From a virus, in IMG/VR virus record IMGVR_UViG_3300045988_161801, positions 2,506 to 66,505 of that record: a stretch of 64,000 nucleotides of DNA. One strand, given 5' to 3'. Below, in pieces: positions 3,674-54,051 of the stretch. A model generated the notes under the pieces. That model was not told the DNA's origin, did no database searches, and saw only the letters and a program-made list of their open reading frames with translations. Position numbers and translations under genes: made by a program. The first letter of the stretch is position 1. Each line of letters begins with the position of its first letter.

Positions 3674-3938
3674 ATTCGTCTTTTTCTACAGAATTTTTGT
3701 ACTTGAATCCCGTGAAAAGGCACTTGATATTCTTGATCATGCCATTGTTCCCTTCCGGGTCAAAAGTGATCCTCGGTTTTCCAGTTTTCTCGTCCCAACG
3801 GGCTATAACGTAACTTTCCGTGCCATTTCTTCTAACAACAAGAGCCGGGACATCACCTTCCCACTTGTCGCTGATGGCCGTTTTTTTACCTATCGTTGAA
3901 AGGTTTAGCCTTTCCATTACTAATTGTTTGCTATTCAT
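3672..3938 (-). CDS. hypothetical protein (last gene of the TerL-portal operon)
   Basis: 88-aa ORF whose start overlaps the portal stop by 8 nt. Confidence 0.45.
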   Translation of the reverse strand: MNSKQLVMERLNLSTIGKKTAISDKWEGDVPALVVRRNGTESYVIARWDEKTGKPRITFDPEGNNGMIKNIKCLFTGFKYKNSVEKDE

Positions 3939-5454
3939 TTTCTTCGGTATTTGGGTTATTTACTTTTTTCTTGTTCTCGTTGTCATACACCTCTTCCACC
4001 TTTTTGGTATCAAGCTCCGTCTCCGCTTGGTTCTCTAATCTCTTGTACTCGTCATTCGTTCCAAGCCCGCTTTTGGTGGCGGCAGATTCGATAGAAAGGA
4101 ATTTAGCTTGTACTGCCTTGTATAACATTTCGATGTATTCGGCCTCGTTTTGATGTATGTAAACCTTGATGGAAGCGTTCACGTCAAGATCATCGTAATC
4201 GCTAACGTTACCTTTTTCTATCCCGTAACCGTGCTTGAATATTCTAAGCATATCATCAACGGGTTGGTTGAAAAAATTGGCATCCGTCTTGGCGATCTCG
4301 ATGGAGGGGGAGTATTTTATCTTTATCGATGCGCCGCTTTCATCCCCGCTTCTCTCTTCGGGAGGTAAAACGATGAAACTACCCATTAAAATGAACTTGA
4401 GTAATTTTTCTATCTCGAGCGTGAAAGATTGAGATGTTTCACCGCCATCCAGTATTTTAGCGTTTCCCGCCGGGTCATTTATTTTTATGACGCTCACGGG
4501 CTTGTTCAAGTTACCCCTGACGATTTTAACTGAATTAGCGGTAACCACAAGTGTCGGGAATGCCCTTGACTTGTTTACTTCCCTTAATCTCGATAGTGAT
4601 ACTTCCAGTTTCTCGATATTATCTTGCGAGAAAGACCAACAAGCCCCGTTGGGATCGTACGAGTAAGCTACCGGCACGAAATCGAATCCATGAAGACCAC
4701 TTTTGATTAACTCCCACCCGTCAAGACCAAATAATTGATCCGTTTTTATTTTCTTTCTCTTGGAATTAACGCCAGCATACCGGTACGTGTAAATTTTTTG
4801 GTTGTCCCATACGTTCATGTATTCACCCGATTCATTCCCGCTAGGATCGTACTGTTTAAATCTTCTCCCGAAGACCTCCAATTCCCCCGTCACGAAATCT
4901 CTTTTGCGATATAGCGTGTCCCCGTCAAGAAAAGAAAATACACGCCACCCGAACTTCTTGTTATTAATGTACCCGCAAAACGCCCCGTTACCCGTGATAT
5001 AAACCGATCTAGCAAGGTAAAAAAACGCCGTGTTCATGTTTTTGTTTTCCCATCCTTGCGACAAGTTATATATCAGGTCTTTTTGTTTCTTGCTAGTTTT
5101 AAGCCCTGAATAGGTGATCTGTATAGGATTCCCGCACAAGTGGGTTAATCTTTTTTCCACGATAACCCTTTGCATGGAAACTGATACCCTTTCCACGGGG
5201 ACAAAACAATAGTGTTCTTCACCCGTTTCCTCGTCTTTTATTTTCTTTATCTCGTCTTGATACCAGCTACTGTCGTTAATACGATGCCCGGACGGGTAAA
5301 ATTCACGAATGAAATCAGCTTGTGTCACGATTTGATAACTCACGTTATCCACCGGTAGCGAACATGATTCGTTACCGGTAATCACGTTCCCTTGCATGTA
5401 GTTATCAGGAAGTACCCTCTTGAACACGTCTTGATATTGTAATATTCTTACCAT
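3931..5454 (-). CDS. portal protein
   Basis: 507 aa, immediately downstream of TerL and overlapping it by 7 nt. Size and position are typical of portals. No motif was checked. Confidence 0.65.
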   Translation of the reverse strand: MVRILQYQDVFKRVLPDNYMQGNVITGNESCSLPVDNVSYQIVTQADFIREFYPSGHRINDSSWYQDEIKKIKDEETGEEHYCFVPVERVSVSMQRVIVEKRLTHLCGNPIQITYSGLKTSKKQKDLIYNLSQGWENKNMNTAFFYLARSVYITGNGAFCGYINNKKFGWRVFSFLDGDTLYRKRDFVTGELEVFGRRFKQYDPSGNESGEYMNVWDNQKIYTYRYAGVNSKRKKIKTDQLFGLDGWELIKSGLHGFDFVPVAYSYDPNGACWSFSQDNIEKLEVSLSRLREVNKSRAFPTLVVTANSVKIVRGNLNKPVSVIKINDPAGNAKILDGGETSQSFTLEIEKLLKFILMGSFIVLPPEERSGDESGASIKIKYSPSIEIAKTDANFFNQPVDDMLRIFKHGYGIEKGNVSDYDDLDVNASIKVYIHQNEAEYIEMLYKAVQAKFLSIESAATKSGLGTNDEYKRLENQAETELDTKKVEEVYDNENKKKVNNPNTEENE

Positions 5455-7064
5455 GCCTCTAAATTTTCATCGTTATTGTTATTGTGTTTAGTAAAGTAAG
5501 CGTGCATTAACAGCATCTCTATTATGTCCGGGGAGTGCCCGATCTGTATTTTCATGTCATATTTTTGGATTAAAGTGTATTTCCCGTTCGTGACAATTTT
5601 CCTTTTTAAAGCGGGTCTTTCGGACGTGACTAGATCTTCAAGCGTTAATAGCAAATCTTTAAAGTAGGGTGTCTTGAATTTCCTGTTTTTTAAATTTGGG
5701 TCAACGCTATACTTTCCTTCCTTCACGTCTGTAACCCATTGTTCCGCGCATTCTGATTTCAAGTTTCCCCATATCTCCGGGTTGGAAGCCCTCGAGTTGT
5801 TGTTAAATTTTTGTGATTCAGAGAAGGGTTCGACTAGATATTGCCCGATTCCGTTAAGGTCGAAAAGAAAGTTCTCTTTTCTTATATTGTTCTTCTTGAG
5901 GAAGTTTTTTACTTTTTCTTTCGCTGTTTCACTCCCAACACCTGTAAATATCTCTATATCGTAAAGGTGTTTCCCGTTGAAGGCTCCTATCACGAAATTG
6001 TCAAGGGTCAATGCCACGTCCGCTACTGCCGTCCTGAACCCGGTGGTTTGCGGCGTGTTATTGAACATTAATTCTATATCTTGTGATGTTAGCAACGCTT
6101 CTGATTCCTCGTCATCGCCCCATATCCCGTTGATGTCCTTAATTGACTGCCTTCCCCCTTGTTGGGCTAGCCGCCCCAGGTAATTCGGGTCTTTTTTTCT
6201 GAATATCTTGTTATCAGCATATTCTCCCTCGATAAAGCAAAAAGACGTGATTAAATCGTATTTGCTACCCCCGCTATCGCTTAATCTCTCGTCGTAAATC
6301 ATGTCAATGTACGCTTTTGCCTTCTCGTAAACTTCCTCTTTTGAATCTCCCCACGCGATCTCGGTGATGTCACTGCCGTACTTGTAAAAATATCGTGTAA
6401 CACCGGATCTTTCTTTTATAATCTGGTTAGTGTTCTCGTCAATGTACCACGATATAAACTTGTACACCCAATTTTTTCTACTTACCGGGTTGCAAGATGC
6501 AACAAATTTATTTTTAATCCCTAACCCGTTCCTGTTGGAAGCAAGTAGGGTAAAAAACGTTTTAAAACTGATTTGCGGTAGCTCGTCGATTAACATGCAA
6601 GGAATTTCTACCCCACGAAAACGACGGTCAATCTCGTTCTCGTTCTGCAAGTGTTCGAATATGACCTTGGCTCCCGACGGGAATTCCCACGTGAAATACG
6701 ATTCTTTGGGCGTGGCGTAGCCGGTATATATTTGCTTGCTTGTATTCCATAATCCCTTTTTAATATCTTTTTCTTCCTTCCTGAAACCATAGCAGGTGAA
6801 CAATGGATTCTCGATATATTCTAACGGAACTAGCTCCATAACGGCTGTTTTTCCGCCACCTCGTTTCCCTCCTATAATAAGCACGTCCGCGTCACATGTC
6901 AAAACTTTTTCTTGAAATCCAGTTTGCGGGATGATGTTGTACATCTTGGAACCGGGTGGTAAGGATAAATTATCCTCTCGTAAAGTCTCCACGTACTCCC
7001 TGGTGTAAACTTCCATTCCCATTCTTAGAAAATCAGGATCTAGTATTTGAACATTTACTTCCAT
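5448..7064 (-). CDS. terL: terminase large subunit
   Basis: Walker A-like GGKRGGGKT, Walker B-like CMLIDEL, and a C-terminal nuclease-sized half. 538 aa. Confidence 0.85.
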   Translation of the reverse strand: MEVNVQILDPDFLRMGMEVYTREYVETLREDNLSLPPGSKMYNIIPQTGFQEKVLTCDADVLIIGGKRGGGKTAVMELVPLEYIENPLFTCYGFRKEEKDIKKGLWNTSKQIYTGYATPKESYFTWEFPSGAKVIFEHLQNENEIDRRFRGVEIPCMLIDELPQISFKTFFTLLASNRNGLGIKNKFVASCNPVSRKNWVYKFISWYIDENTNQIIKERSGVTRYFYKYGSDITEIAWGDSKEEVYEKAKAYIDMIYDERLSDSGGSKYDLITSFCFIEGEYADNKIFRKKDPNYLGRLAQQGGRQSIKDINGIWGDDEESEALLTSQDIELMFNNTPQTTGFRTAVADVALTLDNFVIGAFNGKHLYDIEIFTGVGSETAKEKVKNFLKKNNIRKENFLFDLNGIGQYLVEPFSESQKFNNNSRASNPEIWGNLKSECAEQWVTDVKEGKYSVDPNLKNRKFKTPYFKDLLLTLEDLVTSERPALKRKIVTNGKYTLIQKYDMKIQIGHSPDIIEMLLMHAYFTKHNNNNDENLEAW

Positions 7065-7065
7065 A

Positions 7066-7127
7066 ACAAAAAAGCCCGGAATACTTTTTTAAAAGTACAC
7101 CGGGCGGTTCGCCTCTTTATGCTATTT
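7066..7127 (-). promoter_or_regulatory. late-operon leader: conserved box plus intrinsic terminator directly upstream of terL
   Basis: The - strand reads aaatagcataaagaggcgaaccgccc, then hairpin gcccggtgtactttt/aaaagtattccgggc, then T6, ending 2 nt before the terL ATG. Confidence 0.6.
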
Positions 7128-7157
7128 ATATGCAATCTAAATAATGTGCAATAAAAT

Positions 7158-7188
7158 TTTGTTTTTAAAAGTGTATTGCTTACATTTG
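7158..7188 (+). promoter_or_regulatory. Bacteroidota-type promoter (TTTG -33 / TAcaTTTG -7)
   Basis: TTTG at 7158-7161 and TACATTTG at 7181-7188, with a 19-nt spacer. Confidence 0.5.
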
Positions 7189-7211
7189 TGATACAAATAT
7201 ATAGTAAAAAT

Positions 7212-7427
7212 ATGGGAACTGCAAGTAGATCGTTATTTGGATTGCATATAAATAAAATGGAGAGCCATAGAAAGGCGATTTTGTGTTCAAGTGATCAATG
7301 CAGGCACAAGATAATTTGCGAGGTAGAGGGGAATAGCGTGTACATTAAATGCAAGCGTTGTCCTTCCATGTACAAGCTTACTTATAACGAAAGCACGAGA
7401 ACGTTTGACATGAAAAAAGTTGAATAA
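7212..7427 (+). CDS. small zinc-ribbon protein, Com-like
   Basis: CSSDQCRHKIICEVEGNSVYIKCKRCPSMY has the CxxC..17..CxxC pattern of Mu Com-type zinc ribbons. The ATG at 7212 is preferred to the TTG at 7176 because the -7 box overlaps 7181-7188. Confidence 0.4.
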   Translation: MGTASRSLFGLHINKMESHRKAILCSSDQCRHKIICEVEGNSVYIKCKRCPSMYKLTYNESTRTFDMKKVE

Positions 7428-7438
7428 AATTTGATCTA

Positions 7439-7497
7439 AAATAGCATAAAGAGGCGAACCGCCCGTGAGTACCGAAAGGTGTCACGGGCGGTTTTTT
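7439..7497 (+). promoter_or_regulatory. late-operon leader: conserved box plus intrinsic terminator upstream of the head/tail operon
   Basis: aaatagcataaagaggcgaaccgccc (7439-7464), hairpin ccgcccgtga/tcacgggcgg (7459-7491), then T6 (7492-7497). Confidence 0.6.
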
Positions 7498-7510: not shown

Positions 7511-8149
7511 ATGGATAAAGAAAAAATCTTACCAGAAATCAAGAAAAGAATCGAGGCTCAAGGTAAAAAAATTACTTTGACAGACAGAACGATAGAAGAC
7601 TACATCACGAAAGTTATTTCTCGTATCGTGAAAGATGATAGCGAGTTAACGGATGAATTTTACAACGATCATATAGATATGCTGTTTAGCATGAATGGTC
7701 AAGTGAATAGCGAGGTAGCCAGTATCGTTAAAGAAAAAGGGAAAAACCCGAACGAAACACAACTTCCCAAAACTACCATTAATCCAGAAATCGAGGAATT
7801 AAAAAAAACCGTGAAGCAAATGCAGGACGAGAAGGAATCCGAAAAACGGAAGATTGAATTTCAGTCCCGCGTGAATTCTGCCCGTAACTTCACGAAAAAC
7901 GAGAAGTGGGCGAAGAACGAGAAAATCATCAAGTACGCTATTGAGCTTGTTCCCTTTGAAGAAGAGATGACTCAAGAACAGTATTCTGAAAAGTGCAAGA
8001 AAAAATACGACGAGTTGATGACTGATTTCTACGGTGATGGTATCGCTCCAGAACTCGGTGGTGTAAATGCTACCCCAACGATCAGCGAGGAAGAAAGGGA
8101 TAAGGCCGCTCGGGAAAGAGCGCAGAGAACTAAAAATATTATCGTTTAA
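7511..8149 (+). CDS. scaffolding-like protein
   Basis: 212 aa, highly charged Glu/Lys-rich coiled coil. First gene of the head operon, two genes before the capsid gene. Confidence 0.45.
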   Translation: MDKEKILPEIKKRIEAQGKKITLTDRTIEDYITKVISRIVKDDSELTDEFYNDHIDMLFSMNGQVNSEVASIVKEKGKNPNETQLPKTTINPEIEELKKTVKQMQDEKESEKRKIEFQSRVNSARNFTKNEKWAKNEKIIKYAIELVPFEEEMTQEQYSEKCKKKYDELMTDFYGDGIAPELGGVNATPTISEEERDKAARERAQRTKNIIV

Positions 8150-8805: not shown

Positions 8806-9999
8806 ATGGCACAGTTACCAGCAGGGGCTTTCGAGTCCCAATTTTACAAAATGCTTAACGCTTCTCTCATGTCGGAATTCGGTTACGGGAACGTTAGAAG
8901 CTTTTTCGAGAGAGAGTTTTTGAATTATTTCCCTGATGCCAAATGGAGAGAACTATTTGACGTGGCAGAGGAAAACAGATCCGGTAAATACACGCAAGTG
9001 ATCGGTAAGAACAACCGTCCAGTGATGGCATCTTACGTGGCCTTTGACGCGGATGGTCACTTGATCAGCAGGAAAGGGTTTGAAGTTAGTAGCAAGGATA
9101 TGCCGGTGTCCAAATTGGCAATGAATTTCAACGAGCAAAGCGTTGAGAATAGCGAGTACTTGCAAATGAACGGGGGACGGATATTAACAGGCCCGATAGC
9201 TAATAATTTCCTTGTAGATTCTACTAGTTTACTAGCGGGTATTCACACGTTGAGAAGTTATACCGGGTTACAGATCGAGAGTACGGGAAAGTACGTGTCC
9301 ACCAAGAAGAATAACGGTGGTGGAGCCGAAGGATTGGAGTACAATTTTATCGGTGATTACGAGGCAAGCAACATGAAGGGTGCGGGAGGTTACGGAACTA
9401 GAGGTAAGAAGGTAGCGTGGTCTGACGAGTCAGCAAGCCCTATCGGGGATTTGATGGACATGGTGAAATTTGCCCGTGACAACGGTTTCATCGTTGGGAT
9501 GTTCCGTATGAACGAGAACACGTATAACCAGCTTATCGAACACCCGAACACCAAACAGCAAGTGGCAGCGTGGCGAACCCAAGGGATGATCTTGAAAGAA
9601 AACATGGCAGACTATATCATCACGGATGACGTGATGCAAGCTTACATCAAATCTTTACGATTACCCCCGATTAGCGTTGAAAACTGGACGGCCTTCCATC
9701 AATGTTTGGATCCGGAAACCCAGAAGATGATGGAAAAACCGTTAACGGCATTTGCCGATAACATGGTCGTTTTACGTCCTGCCGGGAAAATTGGAACGAT
9801 TCAATGGAAACAGGTAACGAACTTGTTTAGCACGGTTGATAACCCGTTGTATTACGCCGAGAATGGTCTTGTTGCGATCCAGCAAGTGGTGGAATCTAAA
9901 CAAAGATTCATGCAATTCACTGCCGAAAGTCATAGTTTACCAGTCCCGGATAATATCAATAACTTCCTGTACTTGAAAACTAACGAGGCTGATTCTTAG
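8806..9999 (+). CDS. major capsid protein
   Basis: 397 aa. Position after scaffold/decoration-type genes and before connector genes, with a size typical of lambda-E/HK97-like capsid proteins. Confidence 0.65.
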   Translation: MAQLPAGAFESQFYKMLNASLMSEFGYGNVRSFFEREFLNYFPDAKWRELFDVAEENRSGKYTQVIGKNNRPVMASYVAFDADGHLISRKGFEVSSKDMPVSKLAMNFNEQSVENSEYLQMNGGRILTGPIANNFLVDSTSLLAGIHTLRSYTGLQIESTGKYVSTKKNNGGGAEGLEYNFIGDYEASNMKGAGGYGTRGKKVAWSDESASPIGDLMDMVKFARDNGFIVGMFRMNENTYNQLIEHPNTKQQVAAWRTQGMILKENMADYIITDDVMQAYIKSLRLPPISVENWTAFHQCLDPETQKMMEKPLTAFADNMVVLRPAGKIGTIQWKQVTNLFSTVDNPLYYAENGLVAIQQVVESKQRFMQFTAESHSLPVPDNINNFLYLKTNEADS

Positions 10000-11775: not shown

Positions 11776-12333
11776 ATGGCTTACACATCAAAGCAAAGGG
11801 TTATCGCCAAAGGAACTGGTGATATTTACATAGCGGACCCGGTAGTCAGTGGGAAAATATCAGATGCCGAGTGGGAAAATATAATGGTATCGTTAAAAGG
11901 ATCCTTCACGATCACCCAGGAAGAAGGTGATACCACCACGGTCGAGATCGATCAATCCGACTTGCCTGTTTTATCAGAAACGCAGCCCGGTAACTTGACA
12001 ATATCATGGAACGCCCCCAACACATCAAAAAAGATGTGGGAATTGTTGTACAACACGGTGGCGAGCATGGAATCCATCTACACCGGGAGTGCCGGGGAGG
12101 AAGTTATCGGGGTAAGAATGAACACTAAAGAGATAAAGAAGATGTTGAAAGTGAAAATGAGGGTTGGTGGATCAACCTACGTGTTCCCGAATCTTCAATG
12201 GTCTCGTTTGTTCATGAAAGACAGTGACGATGATCCCACTTATTTCACCATCACTTGCACGGTGTTGGCAGCAGTAGACACGTCGCAACCTGATTTCATC
12301 GTGATAAATCAAATGGACGGTTCTGCCGATTAA
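11776..12333 (+). CDS. major tail protein candidate
   Basis: 185 aa, immediately upstream of the chaperone pair and the tape measure gene. Confidence 0.5.
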   Translation: MAYTSKQRVIAKGTGDIYIADPVVSGKISDAEWENIMVSLKGSFTITQEEGDTTTVEIDQSDLPVLSETQPGNLTISWNAPNTSKKMWELLYNTVASMESIYTGSAGEEVIGVRMNTKEIKKMLKVKMRVGGSTYVFPNLQWSRLFMKDSDDDPTYFTITCTVLAAVDTSQPDFIVINQMDGSAD

Positions 12334-12397
12334 GAATTAAAATGTTTAACGTGAAGGGGTGGAGGTGTTGCTTCATCCCTTTTTAATAAACAAAAGA

Positions 12398-12934
12398 ATG
12401 AAAAACGTGCAACCAAGCGTTGAGGCTCAAAAAAAATTATGCGATATAGATGACGATGTTCATTTACCCTTCACGATTCCAGGAACTAATGATGTTTACA
12501 GGATTGGATTCTTGAAAAATTACACGTGTAACATGATTACCCGGCTTCTTGTAACTAGAAAAGTGTCCAAGCCTAAATCTGATAGCACGAAAGACGTGAT
12601 AGAAACGATGTCCGAGCATTCATCGATTCCTTACAAGGTCGCCGCTTACGGTATCTTAAATTCATGGTGGAAGATTAAATTGTTTCACCGGTTCCTCTGG
12701 CGAAGGCTAGCCATGAAGTATGATTATCAACAAGTGCTTTACATCGTTCAACGAGTGTACGATAATATTGATCTCGCCGCTTTTTTTTTGAGTATGGCGT
12801 TGGCGGAGAAGATGATGAACTCTATGAAGATGATGACCCAGAAGGAAGTAGGGCAATATGCAGCAGAACTAGAATCGGAATTAAAGGGGCATTCCTCAAA
12901 GAATTCCCGGCGTACACGGAAAAAGACTACTTGA
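12398..12934 (+). CDS. tail assembly chaperone (G-like, zero frame)
   Basis: Sits directly before the tape measure gene and contains the T9 slippery run. The ATG at 12398 is preferred over the non-ATG track start at 12359. Confidence 0.55.
   Translation: MKNVQPSVEAQKKLCDIDDDVHLPFTIPGTNDVYRIGFLKNYTCNMITRLLVTRKVSKPKSDSTKDVIETMSEHSSIPYKVAAYGILNSWWKIKLFHRFLWRRLAMKYDYQQVLYIVQRVYDNIDLAAFFLSMALAEKMMNSMKMMTQKEVGQYAAELESELKGHSSKNSRRTRKKTT
12781..12789 (+). other. candidate -1 programmed frameshift site (T TTT TTT)
   Basis: TTTTTTTTT fits X XXY YYZ in the zero frame (gcT TTT TTT TTG). The -1 frame is open from 12772 to 13131. Confidence 0.5.
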
Positions 12935-17933: not shown

Positions 17934-18296
17934 TTAAATTCCCAACATGGCCGCCGGGGGTATGTTAAGCACTTGACAAAGCGAACGAGCTATTTTTAAC
18001 GTTGGTTCTGAACGTCCAGTAATATAATCATTCACCCGGGATGGGCTTATCCCTATTTCTCCCGCAAGTTGTCTTTGTGTCATCCCCTTTTCCTGAAGGG
18101 AAAATTCAATCAATTCCGCTACCGATAGTTTACTTATCGGGAAATGCTCTTTCTCGTAGGCGATAACAACGTCGGACATCATGGTTAATTCCACGGCATT
18201 CTTGTCGTTAGCGGGGGTATTATCATCAACCAAAGGCAAAAGTTCTTCCACTCTTGCCAATGCAAACTCGTATTGTTCTCTAGTAATCTTATTCAT
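17934..18296 (-). CDS. higA: HigA-family antitoxin (XRE HTH)
   Basis: C-terminal GMTQRQLAGEIGISPSRVNDYITGRSEPTLKIARSLCQVL is an XRE HTH. Sits downstream of higB in the reverse TA order typical of HigBA. Confidence 0.85.
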   Translation of the reverse strand: MNKITREQYEFALARVEELLPLVDDNTPANDKNAVELTMMSDVVIAYEKEHFPISKLSVAELIEFSLQEKGMTQRQLAGEIGISPSRVNDYITGRSEPTLKIARSLCQVLNIPPAAMLGI

Positions 18297-18305
18297 GGCC
18301 TTTCT

Positions 18306-18605
18306 TTAAATGGTTGAACAATCTATCTTATCGTATTCCTCGTGAGTTCCTACAAAACGAATGAAAACGTATCCTATCGTGAATTTTATAACAACTACCA
18401 GTCTGTAATTGTTTCCCTTGATATTGAAAACGTAGTGTTGATTCCCCACGTAATCCGTGGCGGGAAAGTCTACCTTTATCTCGGATAAATTTTCCCATTC
18501 CGCTTTCTCCACGACATCATACCAACGTTCAAGAGCTACACGTGAATCCTCTCGTCCCTTGGTTTCGTAAAATTCTTTCAATTTCCTGTGTGATACAATT
18601 CTCAT
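18306..18605 (-). CDS. higB: HigB-family toxin (mRNA interferase)
   Basis: MRIVSHRKLKEFYE..ALERWYDVVEKAEWENLSEIK..VFNIKGNNYRLVVVIKF..VFIRFVGTHEEYDKID closely follows the HigB_toxin family pattern, as remembered. Confidence 0.85.
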   Translation of the reverse strand: MRIVSHRKLKEFYETKGREDSRVALERWYDVVEKAEWENLSEIKVDFPATDYVGNQHYVFNIKGNNYRLVVVIKFTIGYVFIRFVGTHEEYDKIDCSTI

Positions 18606-18637
18606 ATCTCATTTATTTGATGCAAATATAGATAATA

Positions 18638-18686
18638 ATTTTGGAATATAGAATTTACACGGGGATAAAATTCTATATTCCAAAAT
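18638..18686. promoter_or_regulatory. perfect 19-bp inverted repeat (operator and/or int terminator)
   Basis: attttggaatatagaattt (18638-18656) and aaattctatattccaaaat (18668-18686) with an 11-nt spacer. A - strand TAtaTTTG box lies at 18630-18623. Confidence 0.55.
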
Positions 18687-18716
18687 ATAGTGATGGTTGT
18701 TGTGGTGGTGAGAGGA

Positions 18717-19931
18717 TCAAATCACTTTTCTCATACTTATCACCTTGCCTTGGGGTTCTGGTTTCGTCACGAGATCAACAACCCTTCTATTTGCCTCGTC
18801 TATCTTGCCTTGATCGAATTCTATGTACACCCATGTAACGCTATCCCCCTCTTCCTCGTGTCCCAAGGCGGCACCGATCGTGTCCTTGCTAACGCCTATT
18901 TTATGCGCTATCGTGGCCCACGTGTGACGGCACCAGTACTGCGTGAGCTGGGGTAACGAAACCTTGTCCCTCAAGTCGTGGATCGCCTCGTTCATGGCGT
19001 TGTAAAATGACCCGTAGGAGCTGTATTTTTCGCACCACGATAATAATTTTTTCTCCCCCCTGTTGGCGTTAATAATTTTCATGGCGGGTTCAAGAACCTC
19101 GATACTGTACAGTCTTCTCGTTTTCTCCCTCTTGTACTTGATTCTTCCGTCCTCGATAGATGTCAAGTTGTACAGGTCCACGGAATTTATACCGATCAAG
19201 TAAAAACATAACATGAAATAATCCCTGGCCATGGCTACCTTCTCGTCCGTGGTTTCGAGGTTTTTTATCTTTCTCAAGTCCTCCATGGAAATGTTTCTTT
19301 TTATCGTTTTCTCCGTTTTTACCTGGAAGTCATCGAACGGGTATATGTCTTTACTTATGATCTTCTCTTTTTTGGCGGAGTTGAACGCGGACCTGATACA
19401 AGACATTATGGGCCTTCTCCCGTTAAGAGCGGGAGTCCCGTTTTTCGACAAGAATAAATCGAATTTCACCAGCCACTCGTAAGTGATGTCCTCGAATAGT
19501 AATATTTTCCCGTTCGTGAAAGCCTTGATCCTGGCTTGGGTGGTCTCGTATTTTATCCTGGTGTTTTTCTTGTCGAACCGGTTCTTGTACTCTTCCATGT
19601 AAGATGTGAATGTTTTCCTGGAATACACGTCTTTCTTGCTATCCTCGTAAGCGTATTTCACGTCTCTCGCTGACAACAGGGATAGTCTTCCGGTTTCCTC
19701 TAGCGATCGCACGAACATTCTAATATCGTTCACGATCTTGTCCAGGGACAGGTTTAACCTCTTGTAATCTGGCTTACGGTTCGTGAATTTGTCGTTTCCC
19801 CACTCTTCACCGGTCGCGTACAGCGATGTCGAGATCATGGAATTACTTCCCTTGTGGGTTATCAGTACCTTGACGGGGTATTTCTCCACGTTCTTTTTTC
19901 TTTTGTCCAGGTATAATTTTACAGATGCCAT
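18717..19931 (-). CDS. int: tyrosine integrase with Arm-type N-terminal domain
   Basis: N-terminus MASVKLYLDKRKKNVEKYPVKVLITHKGS is a Bacteroidales Arm-binding type. C-terminus has CRHTWATIAHKIGVSKDTIGAALGHEEEGDSVTWVYIE (HxxR ... Y catalytic region). Confidence 0.9.
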   Translation of the reverse strand: MASVKLYLDKRKKNVEKYPVKVLITHKGSNSMISTSLYATGEEWGNDKFTNRKPDYKRLNLSLDKIVNDIRMFVRSLEETGRLSLLSARDVKYAYEDSKKDVYSRKTFTSYMEEYKNRFDKKNTRIKYETTQARIKAFTNGKILLFEDITYEWLVKFDLFLSKNGTPALNGRRPIMSCIRSAFNSAKKEKIISKDIYPFDDFQVKTEKTIKRNISMEDLRKIKNLETTDEKVAMARDYFMLCFYLIGINSVDLYNLTSIEDGRIKYKREKTRRLYSIEVLEPAMKIINANRGEKKLLSWCEKYSSYGSFYNAMNEAIHDLRDKVSLPQLTQYWCRHTWATIAHKIGVSKDTIGAALGHEEEGDSVTWVYIEFDQGKIDEANRRVVDLVTKPEPQGKVISMRKVI

Positions 19932-20135
19932 GTTATTAGATTTATTTAACTATTACGTACGATTTGAAGGCTTGAAATGTTACCTTTTTAACACTTAAAA
20001 TTGAAAAAAAAATCGGTCTAGTTAAAATCGTCCTGTTTTTTAGGTTCACTTATTTTTCACTTTTTGTGGATTAAAAGTACCATTATATGCCACTATTTTC
20101 ACTTAAATGTTCACTTTTATGGACGTTTCAAGGAA

Positions 20136-20185
20136 TAAAAAAATCCCTTGAATCGATCTTGTAACTAATTCAATTCAAGGGATTT
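20136..20185 (-). terminator. intrinsic terminator just 3' of the tRNA-like segment
   Basis: 13-bp stem aaatcccttgaat/attcaagggattt, followed on the - strand by a T-run (A-run 20136-20143 on the + strand). Confidence 0.6.
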
Positions 20186-20189
20186 ATCT

Positions 20190-20249
20190 TGCGGAAAGAG
20201 GGGGATTCGAACCCCCGAATCCCTTTAGAGGATTACACGCTTTCCAGAA
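20190..20249 (-). other. att core: 3' ~58 nt of a tRNA-Ser(GGA)-like gene (anticodon loop to acceptor end), not a complete tRNA
   Basis: The - strand reads ctggaaa-gcgtg-taatcctctaaagggattc-ggggg-ttcgaat-ccccc-tctttcc-g. This spans anticodon loop, long variable arm, T-arm and acceptor 3' strand. No 5' half is present upstream. Confidence 0.65.
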
Positions 20250-20755: not shown

Positions 20756-20888
20756 AACAGTATTATTTTAAATTTCAAATATAATAATTTTCTTTTTTCT
20801 TACCCCCGGGAGCGTGAAAACTCCCGGGACGCTCCCGGCTTAAAATACTTTTTAATGTCGCCGGGACGACTTACAACAGGGGTGGTAT

Positions 20889-25317: not shown

Positions 25318-25344
25318 TTATTTGGAATAATTCTAAATAATAAA

Positions 25345-25411
25345 TATATTTGCGTAATACAACAGAGGCGAACCGCCCGTTACACTAGATGTTAGTGTGG
25401 CGGGCTTTTTT
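25345..25411 (+). promoter_or_regulatory. third late leader: TAtaTTTG box, conserved AGAGGCGAACCGCCCGT, intrinsic terminator
   Basis: The -7 box is at 25345-25352 and the conserved box at 25364-25380. Hairpin gcccgttacacta/tagtgtggcgggc spans 25375-25405 and T6 spans 25406-25411. Confidence 0.55.
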
Positions 25412-32625: not shown

Positions 32626-32915
32626 GGTACGAATTTGACGTGAACAAGCTAGACCTAGTTGATCTTGACGGTCACGACTGGAGAAACGGTTTTCCGGATG
32701 ATAAGCCTTTGAACAAACACATCGCTAGTAGCGTGTATAATCAAGTGAGAGACGTTGGACTTGATGACAAGTGCAAGGCCATTTACAATGGAGAAAAGGT
32801 CGAGTTTGATGATAGGGAGAAAGAATTATTCGAGAAAACAATCAAGGAACTCGGGATAAGTCCCGGCTTGGTCGAGCGCAGGATATTGCAACAAATCGTG
32901 AAGATCGGGGAATAA
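32622..32915 (+). CDS. hypothetical protein
   Basis: 97-aa ORF with a 4-nt overlap with the upstream ORF. Confidence 0.45.
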   Translation: MRYEFDVNKLDLVDLDGHDWRNGFPDDKPLNKHIASSVYNQVRDVGLDDKCKAIYNGEKVEFDDREKELFEKTIKELGISPGLVERRILQQIVKIGE

Positions 32916-33006
32916 AAAAGGGGCGTTCCGTCTCGGAACAGACCCCGCTTATGCAAGAGGCTACCTTGTAACCCCGAGACAAAGGTATAACTTAAATTTA
33001 AATATC

Positions 33007-33185: not shown

Positions 33186-33611
33186 ATGGAAGAGAGAAAC
33201 GTGATAGGTGGGTTCATGGCGGCGATCATGAGTAACCTGCTAGATTTCATGGAGCCCTTGAAATGGTTCTTGCTGCTGGGTTTCATACTGATCATCGTTG
33301 ACCTTCGTTTCGGTATACTGGCGGCTAAAGCACGTGGGGAGGTAATACGCCCGTCTAGGGCGATACGCCGCACTGCCAACAAGATCATAGATTACCTGTG
33401 CTGGATACTCGTGGCGGGGGCGATGGGGAAAGCCTTCGGTATTCCTTTTGACGTGCCGATATTGCCGTCTATCGTTTTGCTGGTGGTGTACGGTTGCGAG
33501 ATAAACAGTTGTTACGGGAACTACTTCGAGGCTCACGGGAAGAAGGTCAAGATCAACATTTTCAAATTATTCGCCAAGAAGGCGGACATAATAGAGGTTA
33601 AAGATGAATAA
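33186..33611 (+). CDS. holin-like multi-TM protein
   Basis: 141 aa with 3-4 hydrophobic helices. Overlaps the endolysin start. Confidence 0.55.
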   Translation: MEERNVIGGFMAAIMSNLLDFMEPLKWFLLLGFILIIVDLRFGILAAKARGEVIRPSRAIRRTANKIIDYLCWILVAGAMGKAFGIPFDVPILPSIVLLVVYGCEINSCYGNYFEAHGKKVKINIFKLFAKKADIIEVKDE

Positions 33612-34020
33612 CGAGAAATTAAGCGAGAATTTTACCATAGAGGAGTTCACAAGGAGTGATAAGGCTAAAGAACTAGGGATAACAAACGAGCCGGGAGAGA
33701 AAGAACTGGCGGCGTTACGTGTACTGGTTAGCCGGACGATACAGCCCTTGCGGGACAAGCTAGGTGTTCCAATCCATGTTAATTCGGGATACAGGTGTCC
33801 GGAGCTGAACAAGGCGGTGGGCGGTGTACCCATGTCGCAACACCAGAAAGGCGAGGCGGCAGATTTGAGTATTGACGGGAAGGCGAATGACATTCTAGAG
33901 GCGTTAGAGAATAACAATATCCCCTTCGATCAAGCGATTCTTTACAGGAAACAGAACTTTCTTCACGTTTCGTTAAAGCTTGACGGGGTACAAAGGAGTA
34001 ACGTTATAATAAAGATGTGA
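33604..34020 (+). CDS. endolysin, peptidase M15 (D-Ala-D-Ala carboxypeptidase-like)
   Basis: ENFTIEEFTRS..VNSGYRCPELNKAVGG..SQHQKGEAADL..FLHVS matches the M15 H/D/H zinc-site pattern. Confidence 0.85.
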   Translation: MNNEKLSENFTIEEFTRSDKAKELGITNEPGEKELAALRVLVSRTIQPLRDKLGVPIHVNSGYRCPELNKAVGGVPMSQHQKGEAADLSIDGKANDILEALENNNIPFDQAILYRKQNFLHVSLKLDGVQRSNVIIKM

Positions 34021-39689: not shown

Positions 39690-39751
39690 TAATGTATTTG
39701 TTATTAATAACAATTACATTATCTTTGTAATGTAATCAATTGTTTATTAAT

Positions 39752-40555
39752 ATGGAAAACGAAACATGGAAAACTATTAGTGGCTATGAAGGATATTATA
39801 AAATATCAAGTAAAGGTAGAGTAAAATCACTTGACAGAACAGTAAAACAAGGTTGTTCTTTTAGAAAGGTAAAGTCAAGATACAAAAAAATACATATTGG
39901 AACTCACGGGTACCCTTGTGTTACTCTTTGTAAAGACAGAAAATCTAGAAGTATTCCTATTCACCTACTTTTAGCGAAGGCTTTTATCCCTAATCCATTA
40001 AACAAGCCATACGTAGACCATATTAATACGAATAAAATGGATTACAAGTTGGAGAACCTACGATGGGTTACCCCAAAAGAGAACGCAAATAATCCATTAA
40101 CATTAAAACATTGTAAAGAAAACACTTACATAAGTAGCGTTTCGTCGAGAGCCAACGATACGAAAAGAAAAAGAAATACAAAAACAGCCCCTCGGATTGT
40201 ATATCAATTTGATAAAATAGGTCATTTGATTAATCAATATGAAAGTTCTAGAGAGGCACAAAGATACACGGGAATACAGGCTAGTTCAATAAGAGATGTT
40301 TGTGTTGGTAAAAGGTATTCATGTGGAGGTTTTTTATGGAGTTATTCCAAGGAAATTGTCCCCCAATATTTAAAGCCAACCCACACAAACGCCAAGACTG
40401 TATTACAATTTGATAAAAACGGTATTTTTATCAAAGAGTGGAAATCTTTGAGGGCAGTATGCGAAGTGTATGGATCATCTCCATCTAATCTTTCAAGAAG
40501 TATAAAAAATGGGAAGTTTAGAGGAAAATATATTTGGAAGTTTAAAAATAAATAA
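39752..40555 (+). CDS. free-standing HNH-family homing endonuclease (NUMOD4 / HNH_3-like)
   Basis: N-terminus MENETWKTISGYEGYYKISSKGRVKSLDR (NUMOD4-like). ..VDHINTNKMDYKLENLRWVTPKEN.. (HNH_3-like). Two C-terminal IENR/NUMOD1-like repeats (..YESSREAQRYTGIQASSIRDV.. and ..WKSLRAVCEVYGSSPSNLSRS..). Confidence 0.75.
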   Translation: MENETWKTISGYEGYYKISSKGRVKSLDRTVKQGCSFRKVKSRYKKIHIGTHGYPCVTLCKDRKSRSIPIHLLLAKAFIPNPLNKPYVDHINTNKMDYKLENLRWVTPKENANNPLTLKHCKENTYISSVSSRANDTKRKRNTKTAPRIVYQFDKIGHLINQYESSREAQRYTGIQASSIRDVCVGKRYSCGGFLWSYSKEIVPQYLKPTHTNAKTVLQFDKNGIFIKEWKSLRAVCEVYGSSPSNLSRSIKNGKFRGKYIWKFKNK

Positions 40556-48953: not shown

Positions 48954-49379
48954 TTACTCGTAAAAAAATCGTTCCTTTTCAATCTTGGAAAATACCCTTG
49001 AATTTCTAACCATTTCAAGCACCTCCTCGACGTGATCATCTCTAAGGTTACTTATCACCAGCGTGTCTCCAAGCATGATACTATTACACAAGAACTTCTT
49101 GCTTAACGTTAGCACTTGGGTCGCGCACAAGAAAGAGTCGTGATCGAGAAAATTGTAATCCGAACGTTTCAACGGGTATTGAAGAGCGAGTTGTTCTGGT
49201 TTTTGATATATACTCCGGTGAACATTCGAGTTTATGAAAAAGAACCCCGCTACTTTATCCTCGTTTACACCCATGATAACGAAAAATTTACCGTGATCTA
49301 TATTCTCGAACCCGGTAGAATGTAGTATCACTCCTCTCGTTATTGATGACTCTATTAATGATTCCGGTAATTCCATCAC
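48954..49379 (-). CDS. putative toxin partner of the second Panacea antitoxin (paralogue of 1794-2264)
   Basis: Shares the FF(I/V)I.G...G(F)..IN.N and LALQYPL..Y.FL blocks. 4-nt overlap with the upstream antitoxin gene. Confidence 0.5.
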   Translation of the reverse strand: MMELPESLIESSITRGVILHSTGFENIDHGKFFVIMGVNEDKVAGFFFINSNVHRSIYQKPEQLALQYPLKRSDYNFLDHDSFLCATQVLTLSKKFLCNSIMLGDTLVISNLRDDHVEEVLEMVRNSRVFSKIEKERFFYE

Positions 49380-49924
49380 TTGAACGATCTTGCTAGTTGT
49401 ACTTGACTATCGATGTAATTCACGTAGTCCTCGTCATCTCCAATTTCCCGAAGTATGTCTTTCACCGACATCGCTCGATCTTTTTGAGTATTTTCCCACG
49501 CCAAGTCGTGTGACATGATTGTCAATTCCTTGAATGATTTATCTTTACATTTTAATATTGCGGAATCAAGGCATTCAACATCACTATCCGACAAAAAATC
49601 CATGTCTGGTTCTTTTTTTGTTTTCAATATATACTTGTTGACAAAATAAAAATATTCCTTGATGTCATCTACTTGATCAGAAAAATAGCTATCTCCTCTC
49701 ATGGCCTTGAATATATCCTCAATATTAGAAGGTACCGGACCGTAATTCATGGCAATGTAAACATCTCCTGTTATACTTCTTCCGTATTTAGACAGATGCA
49801 TCTGATCCGCGTAATAGAGAGTTTTGCATATTTTGTGTATGTCTTTCCTCTCGCCAATGGCGTGCGCCACGTACAAGATGGCTTGGATAGCGACATCCTT
49901 TCTGAATAAAACCCTAGTTTTCAT
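49376..49924 (-). CDS. Panacea (DUF4065) antitoxin-domain protein, second copy
   Basis: IHKICKTLYYADQMHLSKYGRSITGDVYIAMNYGPVPSNIEDIFK. The ATG at 49924 is preferred to the TTG at 49990. Confidence 0.7.
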   Translation of the reverse strand: MKTRVLFRKDVAIQAILYVAHAIGERKDIHKICKTLYYADQMHLSKYGRSITGDVYIAMNYGPVPSNIEDIFKAMRGDSYFSDQVDDIKEYFYFVNKYILKTKKEPDMDFLSDSDVECLDSAILKCKDKSFKELTIMSHDLAWENTQKDRAMSVKDILREIGDDEDYVNYIDSQVQLARSFK

Positions 49925-50112
49925 GATATTCCTGATATTCTGTTCTCTTGTTTGGTGATGTAAAGATATGATAATCGAGTTAAACAACAAATTTATTTTG
50001 AATTTTTAAACCCTTCGAATTCGATGCTTTTAAAATAATTATATCTTTGGACCGCATGTTATCAGGAGTACTTACACCTGTTTTAGAGGAGATGCCTGCA
50101 CGTCTCCTTTTT

Positions 50113-51639: not shown

Positions 51640-52593
51640 TTACCTGAACATCTTTTTTAACCCGCTGTTTACAGCTTCCATTTTTGTTTGATCCGATGGA
51701 TGCACGTAGATGTCCATCGTTGTGCTTATATCGGAATGCCCTAGTAGCATTGAAACTGTTTTCACGTCAACCTTATTCTCTATAAGCGTGGTAGCGAAAG
51801 TATGACGGAGCCCGTGGAACTTGATACAATGATCCAGTTTCACCCTTTTTAATATAAAATCACGGTAATAATTTCTGAACGTGCGTGGTTCCGTGAACTT
51901 GTTAGAGCAAGTACACACGTAGTAATCAGGGTTGCATACCGCGGAAAATTTCTTGATTATTGGCATAACGTTTTTCATGATAGGTATGTACCTGTCAGAC
52001 GATGATGTTTTTGGAGGTCCTATTTCGATTCTTGATTTTTTATCATGATCGCTGTCGTTGCCATCCATCATGTATATTCTTCCCAAAGTTTTACTAACGT
52101 GGATGGTCTTGTTGCTAATATCTATGTCACTCCATTGTAACGCGCATATTTCACCTATTCTCATCCCGGTGCAAATTGTCAACAGTATCCCGAGGTTGAG
52201 CGGTGAAGGGTTTTCAAGAACGTAATCCACTATAGCACGATATTCTGACGGCGTGTATCTTTCTATTTTTGTCGCTAAAATCTTGTTCTTGGTTGGCCAT
52301 GTCATTTTCCAGCTCGTATCAGGGACTATTATATCAAGTTCATCCGATGCAAACTTGATAAGCATCTTTAGAACTATGAGTATATCAGAACAATATTTTT
52401 TTGATTTCCCGGAATCCATCAATTTATAGATAAAAGGGATTATCACCTTCTTGTTTAACGTTTCCACGTCCAAGTTCCCAATGCCTGGGTCTATGATGTT
52501 AATGTATAGCATTTGGTAACAGCTTAACGTGGATATTTTCACTTGACGTTTTTTAAACGGCACCCAAGTGTCGTACACTTCTCTAAGTTTCAT
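51640..52593 (-). CDS. tyrosine recombinase (XerC/D-like, 317 aa)
   Basis: ..[17 protein letters not shown].. and ..[39 protein letters not shown].. give the R..HxxR..H..Y catalytic pattern. Confidence 0.85.
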
Positions 52594-53165
52594 TTTTGAA
52601 CTATTTTCATGTTAGCACTAGCTTTAATTATTTCCGAGAACGCCAGGGTGTCATCCCTCTGATTCAGTAGTATGTATTTTTGTTTTATCTCGTTTTCAAG
52701 CACGTCCCCGTGATACACGTACCCCATGATTCCACGAATTGACAGGTTCAGTAACAGTATCGGGATAGATCTCGATGACAACTCCCAGCACGTTACCATG
52801 TGTTGAGACGGGAAATGTTCCCACGGGATCAACTTGTTGCAACGCTGCCACCAGTCTGCTATTATCATAGAACCGTTCCCGGCGGTTGGCTCGTGAAGGT
52901 GTCCATGTTGTCCGGTTAATTCCGAGCATAGAATCCCTAGAGAATCTGGCGTGAAATCTTGTTTTTTCTGTTTTCTCTCGGATAGCTCGCTCTCGTACAA
53001 TTCTTGGAACCAATCGTGAGACATATCGTAATTGTTCAATCTAATTAATTCCTTGTACATATCGTTTCGGTCGTTTAAATCACCCTCTATAATTTTTGTA
53101 ACGGCATCTGGAAGATCCCTTAGATCGTCTATGCCGAAAAGTTTAAACACGTCTTCTTTTTTCAT
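52590..53165 (-). CDS. truncated N6-adenine methyltransferase-like protein (HsdM-type N-terminal half, no NPPF/Y motif)
   Basis: FTPDSL (motif X), [12 protein letters not shown] (motif I) and [27 protein letters not shown] (GxE..Nl.lhG..gDxL block). The ORF stops about 30 aa later without motif IV. ATGA overlap with the recombinase gene. Confidence 0.5.
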
Positions 53166-54051
53166 AATATTCCAGGTCTTTTTTTAATATTTTCTTGATC
53201 AAGGTTAATGATCTTGATATTCTAGCATCCACGTTCCCTTTACTAATAGACAATATTTTAGCAATTTCCGTGTTCTTGTATCCCTTGTATCTCATCTCTA
53301 GTATCTCCCTGTCTCTCTTCACGGGCAACAAGTCGTAAAGGGGAAACTCGAAATCCTTGTTGAAAAAATACGGGTCGTAATCAAAACACGATAACGAGCA
53401 TCTCTTTTGAATAAAATCTTTTACTCTTTGTTTGCAATACCACACCCACGTTACGAGAATGTCTTCACAATCCCTGTTGCATGTCACGTGAATAAAAGCG
53501 TCTTGAACAATATCTTCTGCATCTTCCTTTGATAAGTTAAACGTCCTTGACAAGTATAACCGTACCCGTTCAAAATGTGATTTATACAATCCAGCGTACA
53601 TGCCCATTTTGCTTGATGATATGACTTGGGAGGCCTCGAAAGGTAATACTAAATTATCTAACGAGTAATCAAGCTTGTTACCGTTCTTGTAGCATGGCCT
53701 GACATCAAGCCACTTGCCAATCACGAACGAGTTGTACAGGCATTGCGCCACCGTCACTTGAATTTCACGGTGTTTCCCGATTGATAGCTTGACAAATTTC
53801 TCAGACAAAGGACGCCTCACGTGTTCTTTTTGAATCACGAATCCTTTCCCGCTAATCGTTTTAGCAAAGAATACTTTCCCGCTGATCGTTATATAATAAC
53901 TCTTGTCACTTGAATCCATTAGATAAGGAATTTGGGCCGTTTTTTCATTTGTTATCTTTTCGATAAAAGATTGAGCTTCATCCACGTGATTTATAAAATA
54001 TCCTTTTTTTGTGTCCATGGTCTCTAGCCAGCTTTCGCTGGTATTCTTCAC
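53143..54051 (-). CDS. sigma-70/ECF-like protein with an N-terminal degenerate HNH_3/NUMOD-like domain
   Basis: Region 2-like ..SKEDAEDIVQDAFIHV.. and region 4-like ..REILEMRYKGYKNTEIAKILSISKGNVDARISRSLTLIKKIL... The N-terminal part has ..CYKNGNKLDYSLDNLVL... Confidence 0.55.
   Translation of the reverse strand: MKNTSESWLETMDTKKGYFINHVDEAQSFIEKITNEKTAQIPYLMDSSDKSYYITISGKVFFAKTISGKGFVIQKEHVRRPLSEKFVKLSIGKHREIQVTVAQCLYNSFVIGKWLDVRPCYKNGNKLDYSLDNLVLPFEASQVISSSKMGMYAGLYKSHFERVRLYLSRTFNLSKEDAEDIVQDAFIHVTCNRDCEDILVTWVWYCKQRVKDFIQKRCSLSCFDYDPYFFNKDFEFPLYDLLPVKRDREILEMRYKGYKNTEIAKILSISKGNVDARISRSLTLIKKILKKDLEYYEKRRRV

Follow-up and report, generated by a model that had tools for sequence, protein, structure and literature searches.

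An intrinsic terminator works only if its stem reaches the U-tract. In the BglG/SacY/LicT-RAT systems, the 5′ arm of the terminator and a weak antiterminator hairpin have a few nucleotides in common, and a protein that binds this hairpin stabilises it and blocks termination. Lambdoid Q binds DNA in the promoter and engages the sigma-paused polymerase, lambda N/nut and HK022 put act processively on distant terminators via RNA polymerase modification (put needs no protein and comprises two larger stem-loops), and P2 Ogr and P4 Delta occupy DNA sites upstream of the late promoters (∼−55), where they contact RNA polymerase. Enterobacterial phages are the source of the N, Q, and put models; for the temperate phages of Bacteroidota, which are abundant in the human and animal gut, we know of almost nothing on the timing of late genes. 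Here we describe a short box fused to a strong terminator-type hairpin at the head of three late operons, together with a linked gene for a small zinc-ribbon protein, in a stretch of viral DNA of 64,000 nucleotides (nt) from IMG/VR record IMGVR_UViG_3300045988_161801 (positions 2,506 to 66,505 of that record). The whole stretch is referred to as the window, and all coordinates are window positions.

The Com protein of phage Mu is a zinc-finger protein, encoded just upstream of mom, that acts on translation; it binds a short hairpin adjoining and partly overlapping a translation-inhibition hairpin and opens the latter (PMC6483171). The native Com site GAAUGCCUGCGAGCAUCCC is AUGC-CUGCGA-GCAU, and the motif obtained by SELEX is CC(N)2-3GAG in the loop (PMC6483171). 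We propose that the three leaders of the window are controlled by antitermination that depends on the zinc-ribbon protein, a reading that we hold, on the evidence of the sequence, to be evenly poised between right and wrong. Protein-dependent antitermination at a leader terminator is a known kind of control, and the candidate reader is new; the locus would be an undescribed kind of phage late-gene switch. Literature searches, including full text, returned no description of such a system.

Box-terminator leaders at three late operons

The components of the three leaders are as follows.

7101–7127, − strand: box A, one arm of a 27-nt inverted repeat; the core AGAGGCGAACCGCCCG runs from 7116 to 7101
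7068–7105, − strand: terminator A, hairpin GCCCGGUGUACUUUU/AAAAGUAUUCCGGGC at 7105–7074 (ΔG −18.7 kcal/mol), U6 at 7073–7068, then gtt, i.e., 3 nt to the terL ATG at 7064
7439–7465, + strand: box B, the other arm of the 27-nt inverted repeat; core at 7450–7465
7459–7497, + strand: terminator B, CCGCCCGUGAGUACC-gaaa-GGUGUCACGGGCGG, hairpin at 7459–7491 (ΔG −26.1 kcal/mol, z = −7.3), U6 at 7492–7497, 13 nt to the ATG at 7511
25364–25379, + strand: box C, the third exact AGAGGCGAACCGCCCG, ∼6–9 nt from the predicted 5′ end of the transcript
25375–25411, + strand: terminator C, GCCCGUUACACUA-gaugu-UAGUGUGGCGGGC, hairpin at 25375–25405 (ΔG −21.4 kcal/mol), U6, 8 nt to the ATG at 25420

Leader A heads terL (5448–7064) and the portal gene (3931–5454). 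Leader B heads a scaffold-like open reading frame (ORF; start at 7511), the gene for the major capsid protein (8806–9999, Phage_cap_E), and tail genes through a tape-measure-sized ORF of 1433 aa, and leader C heads the distal tail genes (including a 2144-aa ORF), the holin gene (33186–33611), and the M15 endolysin gene (33604–34020). Boxes A and B are 100% complementary over 27 nt and are separated by a 311-nt spacer, an inverted repeat for which the chance expectation in 64 kb is ∼1e-7; in the direction of the genes, both arms close with CCGCCCG, the opening of the strong hairpin that precedes T6. A preliminary description of this DNA had reported an exact reverse-complement box (7102–7127 and 7439–7464) at the start of both divergent late operons. 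The repeat is real, with arms one base longer, and both operons do begin with the box; the number of operons rises to three, with the third exact copy of the 16-nt core at 25364–25379 on the + strand (also written AGAGGCGAACCGCCC(G)). The window thus holds 3 exact copies of the core, as compared to an average of 0.72 matches in shuffles even with 3 mismatches allowed.

Among 41 hairpin-plus-T-run candidates in a scan of the window, the three box-linked hairpins rank first to third in stability (−26.1, −21.4, and −18.7 kcal/mol). At each leader a U-run comes immediately after a G+C-rich stem, and only on the transcribed strand, as in an intrinsic terminator; the opposite strand has no U-run after any of the three stems, so the terminators are one-directional and point into the genes. 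The sense folds were also more stable than the antisense folds at all three (−21.1 versus −17.4, −30.8 versus −25.8, and −22.7 versus −16.8 kcal/mol), and this greater stability together with the single direction of the terminators points to a function at the RNA level. The preliminary description had already noted the hairpin with T6 on both strands, with spacings of 2 nt to terL and 14 nt to the scaffold-like ORF that are here corrected to 3 and 13 nt. Because the distance from U-run to start codon is only 3–13 nt, no promoter fits downstream of the terminators, and every late-gene transcript must therefore cross a box and a terminator. Rfam, at gathering and permissive thresholds, matched no family at the leaders of the window or of 10 relatives.

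Upstream of the boxes are the following promoter elements and the first gene of the scaffold operon.

7158–7188, + strand: rightward promoter, TTTG-N19-TACATTTG, a consensus match predicted to drive the zinc-ribbon ORF, box B, terminator B, and the scaffold operon
7194–7201, − strand: −7 box TATATTTG of a putative terL-leader promoter that lacks a perfect −33 TTTG
7212–7427, + strand: zinc-ribbon ORF (71 aa, basic, C-x4-C-x5-C-x10-C-x2-C), first gene of the scaffold operon, upstream of terminator B; candidate trans-acting factor
25318–25352, + strand: promoter C, TTTG-N20-TATATTTG at 25321–25352, overlapped by a copy of a 22-nt near-palindrome at 25318–25339

The rightward promoter, previously listed as a promoter-like element, matches the full Bacteroidota-type consensus and is one of only 8 such promoters in the window. 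Its −7 box (7181–7188) and the leftward one (7201–7194) face each other, and because each sits past the predicted start of the other promoter, RNA polymerase occupancy of the two should be mutually exclusive. The distance of the box from the promoter varies (11 nt past the −7 box at C and ∼78 nt at A; at B it is ∼255 nt from the predicted start). This arrangement bears on the analogy with lambdoid Q/qut-tR′ and HK022 put that had been drawn earlier. As with Q/qut-tR′, the late promoter is separated from the late genes by a strong terminator, and read-through would be permitted by a phage factor produced beforehand; in contrast, the element here is joined to the terminator and is situated downstream of the −7 box at a variable distance (6 to ∼255 nt from the start of the transcript). 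That part of the analogy stands, but the anatomy fits a RAT-like or Com/mom-like overlapping hairpin better. The P2 Ogr and P4 Delta systems are alike in that a small phage zinc-finger protein activates several late operons through a common element, and unlike in that the box here lies downstream of the promoters, has a fixed polarity, and is joined to an RNA hairpin.

Conservation of the leader and its linkage to a zinc-ribbon gene

Relatives were reached via TerL homologs and via homologs of the small ORF at 7212–7427. GenBank phages provided no DNA-level match to the window, an exact 15-mer scan of IMG/VR yielded 37 matches that all fall within G+C-rich coding sequence (i.e., chance), and a scan of GTDB genomes with TerL as the only protein produced one distant match. 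In a sister phage (L211, small ORF 77% identical), the core (G)AGAGGCGAACCGCCCG is identical at 16–17 of 17 positions in both leaders, and the ∼40 nt upstream of box B are only ∼50% identical to the window. Both hairpin interiors are rewritten in this phage with pairing and U-run retained, and the 27-nt inverted repeat is not conserved. Since the 11 extra nucleotides are not common to the two leaders of L211, the functional unit, as judged from this comparison, is the core of 16–17 nt and not the 26/27-nt inverted repeat; the long repeat appears incidental, and its 11 extra nucleotides probably reflect recent copying between leaders A and B. In two further relatives (L204 and L205, with TerL 67% and 61% identical), both terL and the scaffold gene are preceded by AAGAGGC, 4–5 nt, a G(C/U)CC that opens a strong hairpin, and U5–8. 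L204 carries two box-plus-terminator units in tandem. Between these units and its zinc-ribbon ORF are sequences that by appearance are tRNA-like (L204 9343–9670), which suggests that the leader module tolerates insertions between the zinc-ribbon gene and its presumed target.

The same data bear on the possibility that the box is a DNA-level element, either an invertible promoter segment, an operator for a dimeric protein, or the −7 or −35 element of a phage-sigma late promoter starting inside the hairpin. Such a role would suit the perfect 27-bp inverted repeats around 311 bp carrying promoters, the two tyrosine recombinases encoded in the window, and the dyad symmetry of GGCG-N3-CGCC. We nevertheless regard it as highly improbable, given that the long inverted repeat is not conserved in L211, that box polarity relative to the gene is fixed, and that the sense RNA is the more stable through G–U pairs. 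An invertible switch was rejected because the segment has the same orientation in 13 of 13 independent assemblies (the window, L044, L210, and 10 places of P0121); assemblies show the majority form, so that rare inversion would be possible. A −7 or −35 role was also rejected, as no partner promoter element is conserved at a fixed spacing and the would-be −10 sequences in the hairpins are not conserved.

In more distant relatives (∼20, TerL 39–51% identical), a longer leader lies ahead of the scaffold gene, with the order P1, linker, P2, terminator, and U-run. P1 and P2 are small hairpins, P2 is prefixed by AGA, the linker is usually UAGAGGCUA, and the terminator is GCCCGGAGUAG...CCGCUUCGGGC followed by the U-run. 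The upper stem of this terminator covaries, with double changes at 10 of 16 pairs. The P1/P2 stems vary with pairing kept (GCGC/GCGC, GCAC/GUGC, GUGU/ACAC, GUUA/UAAC, GUUC/GAAC, GUUG/CAAC, and GACC/GGUC); both hairpins were scored by script, and RNAalifold on a MAFFT alignment did not recover them. The features conserved across the relatives are AGAGGC (6 nt), a 3-bp mini-hairpin, the terminator, and the U-run. A check proposed in the preliminary description, conservation and covariation of box plus hairpin in relatives, has thus been carried out with a positive outcome: the core is identical in L211, the hairpins show compensating changes, and the distant terminators covary. The box also appears to be what had been suggested, a recognition element, conserved and joined to an intrinsic terminator that separates the promoter from the late genes, in view of its third copy, the core identity in L211, and the AGAGGC kept in L204 and L205. 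In the distant relatives, a long-range helix in which the terminator base would pair with the AGAGGC linker was also considered; GGC/GCC versus GAC/GUC looked compensatory, but an AGAGCC group fits a direct repeat and not complementarity.

The spacing and the U-runs of these leaders are pertinent to the question of whether a switch exists at all. The hairpins might instead be constitutive attenuators, mRNA 5′ stabilisers, or translation inhibitors with the zinc-ribbon protein as a Com-like translational activator, and the box might have a part in translation, processing, or stability. The ends of hairpins A and C lie 9 and 14 nt ahead of the AUG, near enough to impede the loading of ribosomes in Bacteroidota, in which Shine-Dalgarno pairing is not relied upon. 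About one-third of the relatives have a degenerate U-run, and translation is the step on which Mu Com acts (PMC6483171). In most relatives, however, the hairpin ends 25–35 nt from the AUG, which is never inside it. Furthermore, a run of U5–8 directly follows the stem in the window, L211, L204, L205, and most relatives, and this would be superfluous for a stabiliser or a translation block. That three operons carry an identical 16-nt box points to a common reader acting in trans, and on balance we consider the absence of a switch quite unlikely.

A second class of leader was observed in distant relatives at L064 ∼17697, L073 ∼16790, L059 ∼7372, L193 ∼18196, and L179 ∼7193 (+). It consists of a promoter, cAUAUAAG, the hairpin GCCGG-gcaa-CCGGC (GCAA loop, covarying), and a strong terminator with U-run, followed by the ATG of another operon downstream of terL. 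Its layout is that of copy C of the window, and its hairpin is unlike the Com-type ones.

With its order of promoter, ∼8 nt, box, and terminator, copy C also has the layout of a classic small RNA. The terminated leaders could accordingly be small RNAs of 60–300 nt, with a single-stranded seed AGAGGCGAACC and the terminator hairpin, that act on host or phage targets, read-through being a by-product. We give this very little credence: the 6 nt conserved across relatives (AGAGGC) are too short for a seed, complementary targets in the window are not beyond chance, and the late genes have no other promoter. One candidate, the box complement GCCUCUU in a possible − strand small RNA (32955–32961), was dropped as a 7-mer at chance frequency.

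The zinc-ribbon ORF at 7212–7427 encodes a protein with 13 K+R and 7 D+E residues (net charge +6) and an all-β predicted structure (pLDDT 70–82 over residues 30–70). The ATG at 7212 is favoured as its start because an internal Met is Ile in L044 and P0121; its homologs in P0121 and P0122 are 99% and 77% identical. Across the relatives, the window included, the leader element co-occurs with a gene for a four-cysteine zinc-ribbon protein of 45–71 aa just upstream of the scaffold-operon leader. In the distant relatives, the gene that ends at or just before P1 encodes such a protein of 45–58 aa (alignment A3) in every locus of this leader type, and its position is that of ORF 7212–7427, first in the scaffold operon and divergent from terL. 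A strong scaffold-direction terminator was found in 28 of 42 loci with the zinc-ribbon gene versus 5 of 44 without it (86 non-redundant loci; Fisher p = 1.4e-7, kinship ignored). Thirteen of the 14 gene-positive loci that lack a strong terminator were inspected, and in all 13 a hairpin is present whose U-run is shorter. The gene and the box are both absent from L206, L207, and L208. As presence and absence alternate along the TerL identity series, the pattern suggests repeated joint gain or loss of the gene and the terminator. The family extends over 95 protein clusters and dozens of metagenomic loci.

Comparison of alignment A3 with Mu Com gave an hhalign probability of 63% (E = 7e-5), using a Com query that was checked against the Mu genome and is 100% identical to gpCom. 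Hairpins of Com design (4-bp stem, loop C...GA) occur 30 times in the leaders of 17 of 35 relatives, as compared to ∼1 in shuffles (maximum 4 in 500); many relatives have two in the same leader. The L205 protein is intermediate (hhalign 62% to the window subgroup and 62% to A3). The window protein is homologous to that of L204 (hhalign 97%), for which the sole Pfam match is Zn_ribbon_Com PF10122 at 13.1 bits versus a cut-off of 22.9; Mu Com scores 36.8. No Pfam family lies above its cut-off for any zinc-ribbon protein of the window or its relatives, and neither Pfam nor PHROGs gave an informative family. Com is absent from the full Pfam match lists of 4 of 8 relatives' proteins and is not among the best 25 matches of the other 4, and a PDB sequence search with the zinc-ribbon protein returned nothing significant. 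The window protein is small and basic with four zinc-binding cysteines in two knuckles, as is characteristic of the Com family. The earlier label of a Com-like zinc-ribbon ORF is therefore retained for a 71-aa Cys-rich protein with an all-β prediction, but not as a family assignment, because the PF10122 cut-off is not passed and hhalign versus Com is 9%; on this evidence the protein is Com-like in architecture and gene position. As in Mu com/mom, a small four-cysteine zinc-finger gene is directly upstream of the regulated gene; small hairpins of Com design next to a larger, presumably inhibitory one were seen in 17 of the 35 relatives' leaders, whereas the box of the window has a different loop. 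In contrast to Mu, the hairpin here is followed by a U-run with the start codon outside it, so the controlled step would be termination and not translation, and there are three targets per genome at structural operons versus the single DNA-modification gene of Mu.

The linkage data also distinguish among the candidate factors named in the preliminary description (the Com-like ORF, a sigma-like ORF, Rha, and KilA-N). The same cis switch could be read by the sigma-70-like ORF at 53143–54051, by Rha, by KilA-N, or by a host NusG/UpxY-type paralog that recognises an ops-like hairpin on the non-template DNA strand. The window does encode a sigma-70 region 2 + 4 protein, Rha, and KilA-N, GGCGAACCGCC could form a small non-template-strand hairpin like the ops element of RfaH/ops, and the zinc-ribbon protein of the window has no demonstrable membership of an RNA-binding family. 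Only the zinc-ribbon gene, however, is linked to the leader both physically and phylogenetically; the other candidates listed are not so linked. Moreover, ops elements are not generally fused to terminators, and a Pfam scan of the ∼70 window ORFs revealed no NusG/KOW, Q, N, or CAT/PRD antiterminator family, in agreement with the earlier remark that no Q-like protein was recognised. We judge a different factor to be unlikely, though by no means negligible.

Candidate mechanism of late-gene control

The box of the window can fold as AGA-GGCG-aac-CGCC-C, and those of the window, L211, L204, and L205 alike can form this mini-hairpin or GGC-N4-5-GCC. Its 3′ strand coincides with the first 3–6 nt of the terminator 5′ arm (GCC at A; CGCC at B). 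Imposing the mini-hairpin on the fold costs 5–14 kcal/mol, a penalty of a size that protein binding could cover, and draws the terminator stem 3–7 nt away from the U-tract. The overlap between an antiterminator hairpin and the terminator 5′ arm (3–6 nt here) recalls BglG/SacY/LicT-RAT, but Pfam detected no CAT/PRD protein, no RAT sequence is present, and the binder would be a zinc-ribbon protein acting in a phage late operon. Lambda N/nut (boxA-boxB) and HK022 put are alike in that leader RNA with small hairpins confers terminator read-through on phage operons; here, in contrast, one 4-bp mini-hairpin overlaps its own terminator, and there is no Rfam match. A constitutive put-like cis element is disfavoured because such an element would make its own terminator pointless.

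From the cis anatomy of the leaders, its conservation, and its linkage to the zinc-ribbon gene, all of which were observed, we infer termination at the leaders, its relief by read-through, binding of the box RNA, and the zinc-ribbon protein as the binding factor, in the following scheme. Host-type promoters would transcribe each of the three late operons into a short leader composed of the box and then the strong intrinsic terminator. By default, RNA polymerase would halt at the U-run and the structural and lysis genes would be off. Since the zinc-ribbon ORF lies upstream of terminator B, its protein would be produced whenever the rightward promoter fires, before any read-through. The accumulating protein would bind box RNA, contacting the single-stranded AGA(G) and the mini-hairpin, and the mini-hairpin so held would keep the base of the terminator stem from forming beside the U-tract, with read-through at the three leaders as the outcome. 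The protein would thereby reach the result of BglG/LicT-RAT antitermination by the route of Com, in which binding to a small hairpin opens a larger one. The factor must act in trans and diffuse because copies A and C carry the same box with no zinc-ribbon ORF upstream. The arrangement would amount to a delay timer for all three leaders, as the zinc-ribbon gene, upstream of terminator B, would be expressed ahead of read-through.

Several observations weigh against this scheme. The mini-hairpin is only 3–4 bp (−2.5 to −3.7 kcal/mol), with no true compensatory change within the close subgroup, and its loop in the window is an AAC triloop and not the C...GA loop of the Com type. The U-runs are weak or interrupted in about one-third of the relatives. 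In the distant relatives, a gap of 6–8 nt separates the small hairpins from the terminator downstream of them, with no overlap, so that the mechanism may differ there. The window protein (alignment A6) is not significant versus A3 or Mu Com (hhalign 2% and 9%) and has no Pfam match even at E ≤ 1; its structure model is only moderately confident, and a Foldseek search with that model gave no significant match. Finally, the Fisher association ignores phylogeny, and the ORF detector missed some genes.

A broader proposal, which we advance tentatively and at somewhat less than even likelihood, is that the Com-like zinc-ribbon lineage in Bacteroidota phages consists of late antiterminators that bind AGA-prefixed mini-hairpins abutting or overlapping the terminator at every structural operon. 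They would form a new class, unrelated to N, Q, put, and CAT/RAT, in which the Com fold acts on transcription.

Additional features of the window and significance

Two further copies of the near-palindrome found at promoter C flank the divergent promoters.

7123–7144, − strand: 22-nt near-palindrome TTATTTAGATTGCATATAAATA, 6 nt upstream of box A; candidate operator
7233–7254, + strand: second copy of the near-palindrome, within the 5′ end of the zinc-ribbon ORF

These two copies are mirror-symmetric about the divergent promoters (∼−57 and ∼−62), and the copy at promoter C lies over the −33 element. The sequence TTATTT(A/G)GA(A/T)T...TAAATA is present in exactly 3 copies in the window, every one at a late-operon control region. 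It is kept upstream of the terL leaders of relatives (L211 8434–8455, L204 9931–9952, and L155 9883–9904), and the promoter C cassette also precedes the terL leaders in L204 and L155. The near-palindrome may be the operator of a late regulator that binds DNA, and such a regulator would add a second tier of control.

Operons B and C are separated by a leftward integration and addiction module (17934–20230, − strand), and the distal tail genes therefore need their own promoter. The module encodes a HigA-like helix-turn-helix protein (17934–18296), a HigB toxin (18306–18605), and a Bacteroides-type integrase with an Arm-DNA-binding domain (18717–19931). It also contains a 3′ tRNA fragment (GGGGGTTCGAATCCCCC TCTTTCCGCA, ∼20222–20190), which is probably attP, followed by a terminator (20182–20137); ARAGORN identified no complete tRNA in the window. 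A Pistol self-cleaving ribozyme (20798–20871, − strand; Rfam RF02679, 57.7 bits versus a gathering threshold of 34.5) sits in the leftward module that separates the tape-measure-sized ORF from the distal tail genes.

Within operon B, a terminator-like hairpin with T5 (12356–12384, + strand, ΔG −13.5) is located between ORFs 11776–12333 and 12359–12934. Relatives have GGGGCGGGG...CCCUGCCCC plus U5 directly upstream of an ORF ∼5 kb into the scaffold operon. The hairpin at 12356–12384 may set the head-to-tail expression ratio or may demand processive read-through. In the region 32914–32990, a strong hairpin (32914–32946) has a U-run on the − strand only, with TACCTTTG ahead of it on that strand, and might represent either a guard terminator or a small antisense RNA. 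On the + strand, AGAGGC at 32955–32960 lies upstream of a small membrane-protein ORF (∼33009) and the holin gene; it is possibly a degenerate fourth box and is compatible with chance.

The early region (51640–54051, − strand) encodes a second tyrosine recombinase (51640–52593), a DNA methyltransferase (52590–53165), and the 302-aa sigma-70 region 2 + 4 protein (53143–54051). An HNH/NUMOD homing endonuclease gene (39740–40555, + strand) is present among the late genes, and many of the TerL homologs P0019–P0050 are ∼900 aa long with LAGLIDADG (PF14528) insertions, which suggests inteins or homing elements in the terminases of this phage group. SocA/Panacea antitoxin-domain proteins are encoded at two places (1222–1788, + strand, and 49376–49990, − strand).

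The N, Q, and put models have no recognisable homologs in this phage, and the locus provides a compact, testable model made up of an RNA box of 16 nt, a terminator of 33 nt, and a protein of 71 aa. Dozens of metagenomic phages carry the module. If the proposed antitermination is true, the Mu Com mechanism would be extended from translation to termination, and the family would provide small orthogonal protein–RNA switches for Bacteroides engineering.

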